From the sequence record KM092515: DNA of 64,000 bases; one strand, 5' to 3'. This stretch comes from Escherichia phage HY02. The position numbers and the translations under genes are program-made. A model generated the notes under the pieces. It was given only the letters and a program-made list of their open reading frames with translations, had not been told where the DNA came from and did no database searches. This document shows, one piece after another, positions 7,237 to 15,849 of the stretch (positions within the stretch are counted from its first letter, which is position 1; each line of letters begins with the position of its first letter).

Positions 7237-8022
7237 ATGGGTATTGTAAAAATCATCAATGGTGATATCTTTGCTGCATTTGATAAAGGTAAGTTTGACA
7301 TCATTGGTCATGGTTGTAACTGCATGAACCTAATGGGTGCAGGTATCGCTGACAAGATTTCTAAACTTTACCCAAAAGCATATGAGACCGATACAGAAGT
7401 TTATCTCTATGCAGGTGGTATAGGCCACAAACCCTGTGAGAATTTACTAGGTAATTTCTCTGTAGCACGTTTAAAACAAGGTCGTATAGCTAACCTTTAC
7501 ACTCAGCTTAAGACTGGTAAAGATGCCCGATACAGTGCTTTAGAGTCATCTTTGAAACAGCTTAACAGATACTGTGAAGTTAACCAGTTGAAGAAGGTTG
7601 GTCTACCTATGATTGGTGCAGGTATCGGTGGACTTGACCCTCAAGCTGTCACAGTTATCATCAATCAGGTGATGAAGAGTGTAGATGTTTATCTGTATGT
7701 CTATGAAGGCGAGATGTACCACAAGTTACGCTCAGGTTGGAAGAACTACTGTGAACCAGAATACTTTGCAGGTGTAGCAGTGTTCACGGATAACGCAGTT
7801 ACCCTCTTCAGACGAAGAAAAGGTAAGATACATCAAAGTAACCCTCCGGTTGAAAAGATGTCTCTAGGTAATGCTCTAGTTACCCACCTGTCGAAGAGCA
7901 ATCACAGAATGGCTGTGACATTTGGTAGTGATGCAGAAGCTTATATCTATGCAAGAACTGATGAGGATATCGAGGCAATCTTCTCTTCACCAGAAGTTAC
8001 CTTCTTAGACGCAAAGAACTAA
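7237..8022 (+). CDS. macro-domain (ADP-ribose binding/processing) protein
   Basis: N-terminal GDIF...DIIGHGCNCMNLMGAGIADKI and GLPMIGAGIGG loops resemble macro-domain glycine-rich motifs; C-terminal about 110 aa of unknown fold. Confidence 0.55.
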   Translation: MGIVKIINGDIFAAFDKGKFDIIGHGCNCMNLMGAGIADKISKLYPKAYETDTEVYLYAGGIGHKPCENLLGNFSVARLKQGRIANLYTQLKTGKDARYSALESSLKQLNRYCEVNQLKKVGLPMIGAGIGGLDPQAVTVIINQVMKSVDVYLYVYEGEMYHKLRSGWKNYCEPEYFAGVAVFTDNAVTLFRRRKGKIHQSNPPVEKMSLGNALVTHLSKSNHRMAVTFGSDAEAYIYARTDEDIEAIFSSPEVTFLDAKN

Positions 8023-8087
8023 GAAACTCTGTAGAATATTCACAATAGACTAAGCCTTTCTTATCTGGTAAATTTTTCAGGTAAGGG

Positions 8088-8277
8088 GGGCTTTTTCATT
8101 TCAGGATTGTGCAGGTATATTTCTATAGAGAAATCTGTAGAGAAAATTTTGAACTCCAAAGAGAAAATTCATTTTCAAACTGTGCAGGTAATCTCCAAAG
8201 GGCTTTTTCATTTTCAAAACGTGCAGACCCCGCTCAGGTCGGGCAAGAAAAATCATTTTAGAATCGTGCAGGTAGGT
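8088..8277. repeat. four direct copies of a roughly 22-bp motif TCATTTTCAAANNGTGCAGGTA
   Basis: GTGCAGGTA/GTGCAGACC at 8109, 8182, 8221 and 8266, each preceded by TTTTCATTTT. Confidence 0.6.
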
Positions 8278-8298
8278 TTTTATAGAGAGCCAGACCAA

Positions 8299-8329
8299 CC
8301 CCTCTCCCCCTCTTACTCCCCCTCTCCCC
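8299..8329 (-). repeat. C-rich tract; G-quadruplex-prone on the minus strand
   Basis: CCCCTCTCCCCCTCTTACTCCCCCTCTCCCC gives four G-runs of 4 or more on the complementary strand. Confidence 0.5.
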
Positions 8330-8451
8330 AAAAGTCAAGAGAAAAATTTGTAGCGGATTGAAAAATAATTCTTGATTTGTGTTCTGTTTTGTGGTAGTCG
8401 TGTGCGCCCGTTTCATTACAGTTTCGCCAAAGATATTTTTAAAATTTTTCT

Positions 8452-8480
8452 TGACTCTTTGAACGGGGTTATCTAGTATT
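8452..8480 (+). promoter_or_regulatory. sigma70-like promoter for the small-gene array
   Basis: TTGACT, 17-bp spacer, TAGTAT, immediately before the conserved leader. Confidence 0.4.
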
Positions 8481-8485
8481 TGCAT

Positions 8486-8542
8486 CAACGGGGAGGGAAT
8501 GACCTTCCCCACTAAATAAAGTCCTAAACTGGAGATTCAAAA
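8486..8542 (+). promoter_or_regulatory. conserved 5' leader (type A): stem-loop GGGGAGG-N8-CCTTCCCC, ACTAAATAAAGTCCTAAACTGGAGATTCAAAA, then ATG
   Basis: near-identical copies before ORFs at 8543, 10328, 11198, 12419, 12981, 13578 and 13907. Confidence 0.6.
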
Positions 8543-8923
8543 ATGAAATATCGTGCGCCTAAATTCATCAACAAAGACAACTTTCGTAGCGTACTGGAGA
8601 AGTCACTTGATGAAAATTTCAAAGGTAATGTGATTGTTGTTCACTCGTTCAATTTTAAGTATGATATCAACGGGAATAAAATTAACCATTACACGGCAAC
8701 CATGTTAGATGGTACTCTTTCAAGTGAAAAAACAATTCTACATGCACTTGCTGGGCGTGGTAAAAACCTGATAAGCTGCAATAAGAGACGTTATCAAGGT
8801 GGCGCATATGGTTATGATGATGCTGTTTACCATCTTGAAAATATGGGCTATTCAGTGGAGAAAGCTGGAGCGTCTCAAATAATTGGTAGTGATGGTTATG
8901 TGACAATATTCAAAATTAACTGA
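8543..8923 (+). CDS. hypothetical small early protein
   Basis: ORF preceded by conserved leader with GGAG RBS. Confidence 0.65.
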   Translation: MKYRAPKFINKDNFRSVLEKSLDENFKGNVIVVHSFNFKYDINGNKINHYTATMLDGTLSSEKTILHALAGRGKNLISCNKRRYQGGAYGYDDAVYHLENMGYSVEKAGASQIIGSDGYVTIFKIN

Positions 8924-8937
8924 TAAAGTACTTTACA

Positions 8938-8966
8938 GGGGGCTTATAGTTCGATAAAGTAAGCCC
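8938..8966 (+). other. conserved intergenic hairpin (type B) GGGGCTTA...TAAGCCCC
   Basis: GC-clamped hairpin followed by AGATAAAGAGCTTTACC, not U-rich; four copies with compensatory loop changes. Confidence 0.5.
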
Positions 8967-9011
8967 CAGATAAAGAGCTTTACCACTAAATCCTAAATTG
9001 GAGATTCAAAA

Positions 9012-10238: not shown

Positions 10239-10263
10239 CACTGATTTTTAGATAGATTAAATT
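10235..10263 (+). promoter_or_regulatory. sigma70-like early promoter
   Basis: TTGACA, 17-bp spacer, TAAATT; identical copy at 11104-11132. Confidence 0.5.
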
Positions 10264-10327
10264 ACACATCAACGGGGAGGCAATAACCTCCCTACTAAAT
10301 AAAGTCCTTAAACTAGGAGATTCAAAA

Positions 10328-10600
10328 ATGTATACTACTAACAACGGTCGTACTTTGAACGTAACACTGCGTCACTATGTGAATGGTGTAATGCACTTTG
10401 ATGATTTACAAGCTGAGCAACATATCTTAGATTGGCAAGTAGCAGGACTCCAAAAAACTGCTACAGGATACGGGAAAAAGATTCCAACTAGTTGGAAAGT
10501 ATACTATGAAGGACGTTTGCGCAGAATTTATCAAGATGTATGCAGTAATAGCGCATCAAGTTACATCATAGTAAAAGGTAAAAAACTGCATTTAGTATAA
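10328..10600 (+). CDS. hypothetical small early protein
   Basis: conserved type A leader upstream. Confidence 0.65.
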   Translation: MYTTNNGRTLNVTLRHYVNGVMHFDDLQAEQHILDWQVAGLQKTATGYGKKIPTSWKVYYEGRLRRIYQDVCSNSASSYIIVKGKKLHLV

Positions 10601-11103: not shown

Positions 11104-11132
11104 TTGACACTGATTTTTAGATAGATTAAATT
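11104..11132 (+). promoter_or_regulatory. sigma70-like early promoter (duplicate of 10235-10263)
   Basis: TTGACACTGATTTTTAGATAGATTAAATT repeated verbatim. Confidence 0.5.
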
Positions 11133-11197
11133 ACACATCAACGGGGAGGGAATGACCTTCCCCACTAAGTAAAGTCCTTAAACTAGGAGATTCAAAA

Positions 11198-12329: not shown

Positions 12330-12418
12330 ACAAGCCTGATAAAAATCTGTAAATTGTCAATCAACGGGGAGGGAATGAACTTCCCCACTAAACAAAGTCC
12401 TAAACTGGAGATTCAAAA

Positions 12419-12760: not shown

Positions 12761-12980
12761 TCAACAACTTACAAAAAACTTTTAAAAAAGTGTTGACAAC
12801 TCCCCTTGACATTGGTAACTTTGTTCGAGGGGGTTTATCTAAAAGGGATTAACTTAAAAGATTCTTTATAGATAAACTTAAAAAATTGCTTGCAATCAGC
12901 TATCAAAACAAGTAAATTACTAATCAACGGGAAGGCAATAACCTCCCCACTAAATAAAGTCCTAAACTGGAGATTCTAAA

Positions 12981-13511
12981 ATGAACAAATTTCAAGCTAT
13001 CAACTTCATTCGTTCAAATGCTGTAATGTCTAAGCCTGTTAAAGATACCTATGAATTTCGTTGCAATGGTGTACACTTTGCAACCATTACCAAATCAGAA
13101 AACGGGGCTTATTACGTCCATCGTCGTAATGTTTCCACCGTTGTAGTCTCTCACTTTATGCAAGCTGTCGCGGAACTTCTCCCGATGTTTTTAGGTCTTT
13201 ACTTAGATGATTGTAAAAACGTTCACAATCACGTTAAAAACCTTTTAAATGGTTATAAAATGGCTTATGAACGTTCTATCAAGTCCTTGAACAAGTTCTA
13301 TAAAGCACCTGTAAATACCGTTTCAATGGCCTACGGCATAGGTGGCTGGACTGTTAACCTTTCTCTAGTGGAAGAAATCGAGCTTTATGATTTACGTCCT
13401 AGCGGTTACTCTAAGACACTGGGAGAAGGTTTAACGTTCAATATCAAGAACTTAGAAAAAACTTTAAAAGATATTGAAAAAGACATTGACGAGACAATCA
13501 AAAATCTGTAA
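12981..13511 (+). CDS. hypothetical small early protein
   Basis: conserved type A leader upstream. Confidence 0.65.
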   Translation: MNKFQAINFIRSNAVMSKPVKDTYEFRCNGVHFATITKSENGAYYVHRRNVSTVVVSHFMQAVAELLPMFLGLYLDDCKNVHNHVKNLLNGYKMAYERSIKSLNKFYKAPVNTVSMAYGIGGWTVNLSLVEEIELYDLRPSGYSKTLGEGLTFNIKNLEKTLKDIEKDIDETIKNL

Positions 13512-13577
13512 ATTGTCAATCAACGGGGAGGGGATGACCTTCCCCACTAAATAAAGTCCTAAACTGGAGTTATCAAG

Positions 13578-14219: not shown

Positions 14220-15849
14220 GTCTATCCAATCCTTATACAATACCTTTCCTCACCTTTTCAGAATCTTATCAGACCTTAAAAGCAATAACTCTATAGTCTA
14301 CTCTATAGCCTTTTATCAAATCAACTTAAATATAAGCCAATAACCCCAGAAAGGGGATGGCCCATTTAAACGCTCTATAAAGCGCTATAACAGCCTTATC
14401 AACCTAACTTAAGGGATTGCATTAACTCACCCTTAAAAGCTCTTTACAGGGCTTTATAGAGGCTTAAAAGAATCTTATAAGGGTATAAGCTAATAGGTTG
14501 GCTAGTATCTTGTGAATAACTAAACAATCCCCTTGATAGTCACTAAAAAGTATGTTATAGGGGGCTATAAAGTTACTTCAAAGTTACGTGATAGATAGCT
14601 TAAAAGTTACGTAAATGCTAGCCCCCTTAACATTTTCTTAACAATTTCTTAACAATCCCCTACATAGTTATGCTTGTTAGAGACTTGTTAGCCCCTTGTT
14701 AAATCTCTGTTACAACCACGTAAAAGCCTTGTAAGAACCTTTGGCATAGCCTTAAAAGCCCCTGTAAAGCCCTATAAAGAGCTATCCATACAGTTGAGGG
14801 GTAAATACTAGGAAGAGGCTTAAAAGAACTTATAAGGGGCTATAGAGAGCTTTTAAGAGGCATGTTTAAGGAATCACTAAGAAATAAAGGGAACTATAAG
14901 AAAAGAGATAGTGACCATGTTAATAGCTTGTTAAAAAGATTAAACACTTGTTAGAAACTTGTTAATTATCTTAACAAAAATAACTCTTTAAAATTAACTT
15001 GTTAGCTCTTGTTAGTCATCTGTTAAGATTCTGTAAAGCCTATTCAGCACTTGTTAGAAAACTGTTACAGCCTTGTTAGTTCTGTTAAGAACCTGTTAAT
15101 ACCTTTGAAGAGTTGTTAAGAAGATGTGAGAACTGTTAAGAGATTGTTAAGGATATTTTAAAATTTTGCAAAGTACTTGTAAGGGAGCTGTTAAGGGCTA
15201 CCAAGCAGATATACATCTTCTACAGATATTTTTCAGTTCCTTCAAAGACCCTAAAAAATGACTTGATAGCCCTATTTTATAAAAATTTTAAAATTCTGAA
15301 TAATTACCTAGACAGTCTTTTAAAAATACAGGCATAAACAGGCTTATAAGATACCTTGTTAGTACCGTGTTAGACCTTGTGGGGTAAGGTCTGCAAAGAT
15401 ATTCCTGTTAAGTTTGTTAAAACAGTCTATATAGAGGCTTAGTATCCCCTAGTGAACACCTATAGAGGGTAACATAGCTAACCTAATGGGTTACTGTTAA
15501 GTAACACAGATAACCTAGAGATTAAGAGGTGTATAGGAGCTTCTAAGATGGTGTAGAGAGATGGTTAAGGTGATTGTATAGGTTGTTAAGAAGGCTTGTT
15601 AGAGGGCTTGTTAGAAGGGCTATACAGAGGGGCTATTAAGACCACTAGATAGATACTAAGATACTATATAGTACTATATAACTATATATAGAGAGTAAGC
15701 TTAAGAAGGTTGTTAAGAAGGGTAGATATTTTATTCACATATGATGGTGACCCAGAGGTTGGGACAACCGATAAAATTTTATAAAAAATATAAATTTCGT
15801 AAATTTTACTCAATAAAAAGCCCCCAATTAAGGAGGCTCTTAAGATATT
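14220..15849. repeat. ORF-free region with dense short direct repeats (CTTGTTAG / CTGTTAAG family) and an AT-rich CTATATA tract; candidate origin or regulatory hub
   Basis: no ORF over 1.6 kb; more than 25 copies of (C/G)TTGTTA(G/A) and CTGTTAAG, densest at 14930-15200; CTATATA three times at 15661-15695; recurring CTTAAAAG/CTTATAAG/CTATAAAG words at 14340-14870. Confidence 0.6.

Follow-up and report, generated by a model that had tools for sequence, protein, structure and literature searches.

Organization of the region downstream of the macro-domain gene

The window analyzed here is a 64,000-nt stretch of Escherichia phage HY02 (KM092515), read on the + strand as given. The genome was assigned to the Felix O1/wV8-like phages (Ounavirinae, Felixounavirus), the region matching about 250 such phages at 90–99% identity, and is AT-rich (about 39% G+C), as a first-pass annotation of this DNA had remarked. 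A C-rich tract lies in a 520-bp non-coding stretch (8023–8542) between a macro-domain gene (Pfam Macro, 7237–8022) and an array of small genes. This location agrees with the first-pass annotation, as does the regulatory character of the stretch, which carries a terminator, repeats and promoter-like sites; the description of the array as “early” is an extrapolation from its host-type, sigma-70-type promoters, which would suggest such timing. The elements follow in the order terminator, four repeats, 52-nt cassette, A-tract block, promoters P1 and P2, hairpin, ribosome-binding site (RBS) and ORF at 8543:

7237–8022, + strand: macro-domain (“phosphatase”) gene (Pfam PF01661, E = 6.7e-8; PHROG 335)
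8052–8093, + strand: intrinsic terminator of the macro-domain operon, made up of a 17-bp stem and a T-run; wV8 and ASO1A have it annotated as a rho-independent terminator
8096–8114, + strand: repeat 1, TCATTTCAGGATTGTGCAG, first of a four-copy iteron-like array
8169–8187, + strand: repeat 2 of the iteron-like array, TCATTTTCAAACTGTGCAG
8208–8226, + strand: repeat 3 of the iteron-like array, TCATTTTCAAAACGTGCAG
8253–8271, + strand: repeat 4 of the iteron-like array, TCATTTTAGAATCGTGCAG, abutting the cassette
8278–8329: variable cassette (52 nt), here in form A, consisting of TTTTATAGAGAGCCAGACCAA and the tract, which makes up the right-hand 31 nt
8299–8329, minus strand: G-quadruplex (G4) motif; the + strand is a four-C-run i-motif candidate and the duplex, a homopurine/homopyrimidine mirror repeat, an H-DNA candidate
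8330–8372: A-tract block, AAAAGTCAAGAGAAAAATTTGTAGCGGATTGAAAAATAATTC, the best-conserved intergenic segment; its AGTCAA reads TTGACT on the minus strand
8373–8401, + strand: candidate promoter P1 (TTGATT, 17 nt, TAGTCG; a TG lies two bases ahead of the -10), found by eye
8451–8479, + strand: promoter-like site P2 (TTGACT, 17 nt, TAGTAT), found by consensus scan and annotated as a promoter in ASO1A
8484–8542, 8925–9011, 10258–10337, 11127–11197, 12349–12418, 12911–12980 and 13508–13569: promoter/GC-hairpin/CTGGAGATTCAAAAATG modules

The four repeats, 19–25 nt long with start-to-start spacings of 73, 39 and 45 nt, look like an iteron-type protein-binding array. Their direct-repeat pattern (TCATTTYMRRANNGTGCAG) gave four matches in 64 kb against 0.34 expected, all of them in this intergenic region; the repeats were also considered as a general promoter class, which was ruled out by the confinement of the pattern to this one region within the 64 kb. 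In reverse complement the repeats resemble the RBS/ATG module of the array (8243–8265 against 8534–8556, GATTCTAAAATGA against GATTCAAAAATGA, 78% over 23 nt), a likeness that could be left over from an inverted duplication or could allow antisense pairing.

The right edge of the tract lies 44 bp upstream of the -35 hexamer of P1, a site that was not called by the consensus promoter scan, and 122 bp upstream of that of P2. P2 is followed by a hairpin (8484–8505), the RBS and the first of the many small array ORFs at 8543. The module of promoter, GC-hairpin and CTGGAGATTCAAAAATG recurs ahead of many small array genes and corresponds to the direct repeats annotated as DR_1 to DR_9 in wV8. Temporal control in Felix O1 was described as not understood in the Felix O1 genome paper, and a search of the literature on Felix O1 transcription, termini and quadruplexes returned nothing on the tract locus.

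Sequence and structure-forming capacity of the tract

The + strand at 8299–8329 reads CCCCTCTCCCCCTCTTACTCCCCCTCTCCCC (C4-TCT-C5-TCTTACT-C5-TCT-C4), giving GGGG-AGA-GGGGG-AGTAAGA-GGGGG-AGA-GGGG on the minus strand, exactly as first described. With runs of 4–5 G and loops of 3, 7 and 3 nt, it falls within the canonical G4 definition (four G-runs of at least 3, loops of 1–7 nt), and a regular-expression scan of both strands found no other G3+N1-7 or G4+N1-7 motif in the 64-kb window. G4Hunter scored the tract at -2.45, the highest absolute value in the window (next best 1.8) and above the propensity threshold of an absolute score of at least 1.5, with -2.36 for the best 25-nt window. The ViennaRNA G4 model gave -23.2 kcal/mol compared with 0 without a G4. 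The G4 prediction that had been proposed as a check on the motif was favorable by motif scan, G4Hunter (absolute score 2.45) and ViennaRNA alike, and the reading as a textbook intramolecular G4, with four G-runs of at least 4 and short loops, stands at the sequence level.

A motif with runs of at least 4 arose in none of 400 first-order Markov simulations of 64 kb, and a motif of some kind with runs of at least 3 in 21 of the 400. The 11-mer half-site CCCCTCTCCCC occurs twice against 0.15 expected. The tract is thus non-random and not a product of chance. It contains three copies of a CCCCCTCT unit, and an origin by local duplication is therefore suggested.

The G4, put foremost by the first-pass annotation, is not the only candidate structure. 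Pyrimidines make up 30 of the 31 bases of the + strand, and mirror symmetry holds at 29 of 31 positions, with arms of 14 nt around a 3-nt centre, in agreement with the sequence definition of H-DNA (a mirror repeat, homopurine on one strand and homopyrimidine on the other, whose arms reach about 10 nt or more on either side of a short spacer). Because it is a near-perfect pyrimidine mirror repeat, the tract is as good a candidate for H-DNA as for a G4 with an i-motif. The i-motif option raised for the + strand is equally well founded in sequence terms, the strand carrying four runs of at least 3 C separated by short loops.

The tract is 71% C in a genome of about 39% G+C, and the 54-nt cassette, measured from anchor to anchor, holds 26 C and 5 G. 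Rightward transcription through it would give C-rich, G-poor RNA that might act as a rut site, a signal made up of about 70–80 nt of such RNA, with Rho removing read-through before the array promoters. The sequence CCCCCTCTTACTCC appears to resemble the core of lambda tR1 rutA, CCCCGCTCTTACAC. However, a strong intrinsic terminator lies 200 bp upstream, with no convincing rightward promoter between terminator and tract, and the tract is outside the six highest-ranked 78-nt windows of the + strand by C/G ratio. In addition, a genome carrying the other cassette form described below (L021) has an intergenic C/G maximum of just 1.78 in 78-nt windows, over the repeats and not the cassette. A rut function is regarded as quite improbable.

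Two cassette forms among related phages

The regions downstream of the macro-domain gene were taken from 28 IMG/VR contigs, the closest 26 of which (L005–L030) were aligned with the window, and ten GenBank phages together with ten loci from a flank-sequence scan were added to the comparison. The repeats, A-tract block and promoters were kept in all compared genomes, including those of Suspvirus and Mooglevirus, the macro proteins of which share just 64–70% identity with that of the window. The cassette between them occurred in two forms. Form A, that of HY02, was found in 112 phage database records from Felixounavirus, Suspvirus and Mooglevirus at 75–100% identity over the full query, and form B, a 52-nt sequence (GGGTGCAGGTGGGGATGTCGCCATTTCTCACAAGGCTACCACATCTGAAAAG), in 140 records, all from Felixounavirus, at an identity of at least 90% to the form B query. 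Counted by position, the two forms agree at 18 of 52 positions, which is essentially random, yet both give 54 nt between identical flanking anchors. The lone form B exception, VpaE1, is 10 nt shorter, equivalent to one helical turn, and the cassettes of Mooglevirus and Suspvirus differ in length by 2–6 nt.

No paralogue of form B was found in the window, and form A had no match in 5,426 E. coli genomes. Since form A is found in three genera and form B in Felixounavirus alone, form A is probably the older, ancestral allele and form B a later replacement that is now the majority allele in Felixounavirus. Among the form B phages is Bas63, the only member of Felixounavirus to have a genome-wide insertion map. 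The tract itself is dispensable for a viable phage of this type.

The presence of two discrete alleles of equal length between conserved flanks, next to a unique repeat array, would be in keeping with a binding site for a host or phage protein, forms A and B representing alternative specificities that act together with the array. Against this, no phage gene was found to co-vary with the allele, including the first downstream gene, the identity of which showed no association with form A or B in the alignment of 26 contigs and the window, and no known binding consensus was recognized in the cassette. We consider such a protein site improbable.

The two forms also share promoter-like sequences on the minus strand. 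In all complete form A cassettes examined, a G-rich stretch of 17 nt separates TTGACT (8339–8334 in the window) from the TAAGAG (TAATAG in wV8) of the central loop, and form B has TTGACT-N14-TGG-TAGCCT at the corresponding position. A leftward promoter at this site would produce a G-rich RNA able to form an R-loop with a G4, which could prime replication or recombination through the repeats. However, sigma-70 promoters combine a 16–18-nt spacer with a -10 of the form TAnnnT, and the almost invariable last T of that hexamer is missing from form A; the consensus scan called no minus-strand promoter at the tract, no downstream gene or RNA family was found, and the G-rich start is absent from form B. 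Such a promoter in form A is judged very unlikely, and there is likewise a small probability that a leftward promoter is a feature common to forms A and B. A search with Rfam covariance models gave no match in 7900–8700 up to E = 1.

A broader proposal would make the cassettes alternative functional modules of a control region composed of repeats, cassette and back-to-back promoters, with a leftward transcript of form A that would begin within the G-runs and give a G4-stabilized R-loop, and with form B reaching the same result through an ordinary extended -10 promoter. The R-loop over the repeat array could then prime replication or recombination, as at pilE and mitochondrial CSB II. The chance allowed for this proposal, its priming step included, is very slim.

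Conservation of the G4 pattern

Four C-runs of at least 3 were retained in 13 of 14 distinct form A variants, across genera and despite changes in loop sequence and run length; a natural form A variant without the G4 motif is found in L005 (CACCTCT...). Within Felixounavirus, one of eight substitutions counted by hand fell at a motif-critical position (6 of the 31 positions of the tract) against 1.5 expected, close to the chance rate. Between genera, the identity of the cassette was 0.69–0.73, that of four-fold degenerate sites in the adjacent gene 0.57–0.70, that of the repeats 0.79–0.82 and that of the A-tract block 0.80–0.90; conservation of the repeats thus exceeds that of the four-fold degenerate sites. 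The predicted G4 energy was -23.2 kcal/mol in both the window and wV8 and -2.0 kcal/mol in the Michonne-type (Mooglevirus) tract. In the Mooglevirus tract (CCCCACCATCCCCTCTTACTCCCCTTCCTCCC) the pyrimidine strand includes purines and the arms are asymmetric, with loss of the mirror symmetry. Form B is devoid of a G4 motif on both strands, and no G4 was predicted in L005 or form B.

Weak selection on the run pattern would be compatible with its retention in 13 of the 14 variants. Taken as a whole, cassette conservation is close to the neutral level, strong G4 stability is plainly not conserved, and selection for a G4 need not be invoked. An importance of the motif to the phage is unsupported, the motif being absent from 140 of about 250 related genomes, its predicted stability lost in Mooglevirus relatives and L005, and its conservation near-neutral.

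These data bear directly on whether the tract could be a functional non-B DNA switch, in which negative supercoiling behind RNA polymerase at P1/P2 would flip it to a G4 with an i-motif, or to H-DNA, and so tune promoters about 45–150 bp downstream in the manner of c-MYC NHE III1. The very strong G4 motif and near-perfect mirror repeat, the position 44 bp and 122 bp upstream of the P1 and P2 -35 hexamers, and the four C-runs kept in 13 of the 14 variants, other genera included, all speak for such a role. On the other hand, neither strand of form B, which predominates in the genus, carries such a motif, so that a switch could not be essential. In Mooglevirus the predicted stability is down to -2 kcal/mol from -23, and the loss of the mirror symmetry there also argues against the H-DNA version; conservation is not above that of four-fold degenerate sites. 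A switch of this kind is unlikely, if less so than a protein site.

Assembly breaks and the position of the genome ends

One IMG/VR metagenome (3300045988) contains eight form A contigs, four of which terminate in or beside the tract, and five form B contigs, none of which breaks at the cassette. Contig 003641 stops at ...CTCTTACTCC and resumes with the Nextera adapter and then CCCCAAAAG, the sequence of contig 009833 breaks off at the identical base and continues into adapter sequence, contig 004180 begins with the adapter and then CTCTTACTCC, and in contig 001525 the two ends overlap by 55 nt, the overlap beginning in the tract. The record of phage Andreotti (MN850610, L033) also stops immediately short of the tract and shows an inverted-duplication artefact there.

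The adapter junctions fall at the central TCTTACT, an AT-containing centre between C-runs, and symmetrical motifs in which G and C surround an AT-rich middle are the reported preferred cutting sites of Nextera XT (PMC9330563). A Tn5 tagmentation hotspot is at least as good an explanation of the breaks as stalling of the polymerase. Because the Nextera hotspot motif matches the tract, the breaks were not counted as evidence for a G4; their use as a natural polymerase-stop assay was set aside on account of the adapters at the junctions and the reported Nextera XT preference.

Several further observations concern these records. Form A assemblies broken in the tract are L006, L007, L046, L048, L050 and L056, and Nextera adapter was left in some of the deposited ends. 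The Andreotti record, at 83,391 bp, is about 4 kb short and has its inverted-duplication artefact at the start (1–46). In L011 (3975–4198, the 3' end of contig 3300045988_004180), repeat 3 is followed by unrelated G+C-rich sequence (GATCAGCGCCGTAACGAACGCCGCC...), probably through a chimeric join with bacterial DNA.

The clustering of assembly ends could also be taken to mean that the tract is a physical genome end or packaging site, as five assemblies end in or beside it (L006/L046, L007, L048, L026/L050/L056 and Andreotti). However, the broken contigs bear Nextera adapters at the break, and the ends of two phages that both carry form A were mapped elsewhere (PMC8303462, PMC4837284). Genomes of Felixounavirus carry short direct terminal repeats, that of Pr103Blw measuring 581 bp by PhageTerm (PMC8303462) and that of UAB_Phi87 608 bp by Bal31 digestion with run-off sequencing (PMC4837284). 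The 581-bp repeat of Pr103Blw maps to 14621–15202 of the window, 6.3 kb from the tract. A genome terminus, terminal repeat or pac site at the tract was ruled out by this mapped terminal repeat, leaving the genome-end reading a practically negligible probability. The homologue of the Pr103Blw terminal repeat at 14621–15202 (93.8% identity) is non-coding, with dense CTTGTTAR/CTGTTAA repeats, many of them 11 nt apart, that are likely to form a recognition array for packaging or replication.

Small ORFs annotated across the cassette

Some records place the tract within a small protein-coding gene. Stop-free frames of 50–110 codons span the repeats and cassette on both strands, and genes are annotated there on the + strand (wV8 gp13, FO1a gp14) as well as on the minus strand (Sf15 gp10, SP107_00335). 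The evidence from related genomes is nevertheless against coding: the frame is shifted by a 2-nt deletion in wV8 and by 2- and 4-nt indels between genera, the frame in which the conserved block 3' of the tract is read changes from genus to genus, variable sites number 11, 5 and 12 by codon position with no third-position excess, and the + strand frame lacks a proper start or RBS. A coding gene on either strand was ruled out on the grounds that the frames are not conserved and show no third-position excess, and the residual chance of one is extremely small. The small ORFs given on opposite strands in GenBank records over window positions 8100–8361 are mutually incompatible and, because their frames are not conserved, are probably annotation artefacts.

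A proposed role of the cassette as a length-constrained spacer

The explanation that we favor, and to which we would give about an even chance, is that the tract represents form A, one allele of a length-constrained 52-nt spacer, its structure-forming capacity being incidental. Such a spacer would separate the four-repeat array from the block of A-tract and promoters that heads the small-gene array. Selection appears to hold its length constant, and hence the distance from the repeat array to the promoters, and apparently does not hold the C-runs themselves constant. We infer this spacer role from the comparison of the cassettes, and likewise that the tract sequence was probably born by local duplication of the CCCCCTCT unit. 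The single-stranded complement of the tract is predicted to be able to fold into a very stable four-tetrad G4, and the negatively supercoiled duplex could adopt H-DNA, or an i-motif plus a G4. These would be physical capacities, side effects of the sequence of which phage growth would be independent. Several points run counter to a spacer. Four C-runs persist in 13 of the 14 form A variants, a stretch of 71% C is odd for a neutral spacer in a genome of 39% G+C, and the equal length of the two alleles is a single observation, from which the Mooglevirus and Suspvirus cassettes depart by 2–6 nt.

The tract is best described as a putative quadruplex sequence, a genuine G4-prone motif that is most likely a spacer and for which a G4-dependent function would not be required. 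The region nevertheless offers a natural test case, with more than 250 sequenced phages carrying either a strong G4 motif or an unrelated sequence of equal length between near-identical flanks, and the allele pair could reveal directly whether a strong G4 upstream of bacterial promoters acts in vivo. On the practical side, these phages are in wide use for biocontrol and typing, and their Illumina Nextera assemblies tend to be broken at the tract. The tract also points to a previously undescribed, conserved 520-bp control region with four unique repeats, the function of which is the more interesting question.

Comparison with known systems

On present sequence evidence, the closest known kinds of element are promoter-upstream polypurine/polypyrimidine G4 elements and H-DNA mirror repeats. 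Like the promoter-upstream G4/i-motif elements of the c-MYC NHE III1 type, the tract is strand-asymmetric, G-rich on one strand and C-rich on the other, has at least four G-runs, is located about 50–150 bp upstream of promoters and could in principle absorb transcription-generated negative supercoiling. It differs from c-MYC NHE III1 in belonging to a bacterial virus and in being missing from most close relatives, with a predicted stability that is not conserved. With the H-DNA mirror repeats studied on E. coli plasmids it shares its 30 pyrimidines in 31 bases, 14-nt arms and 3-nt centre, but the symmetry and strand purity are lost in the Mooglevirus versions, and the tract is a sequence-based candidate.

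Transcription-coupled G4 and R-loop formation is known from the G4 of Neisseria gonorrhoeae pilE, with its cis sRNA promoter, and from mitochondrial CSB II. As in these systems, the G4 motif of the tract lies next to, or extends over, a promoter-like element, here a -35-like hexamer (TTGACT) of the G-rich strand with the spacing of a promoter, an arrangement suggestive of a transcription-coupled G4 and R-loop; unlike them, it has a poor -10 (TAAGAG), and form B has no counterpart of the G-runs. Finally, putative quadruplex sequences have been catalogued in the genomes of double-stranded DNA viruses and phages by statistical G4Hunter surveys (e.g. PMC8036883), and the tract has all the sequence properties by which such surveys recognize them.
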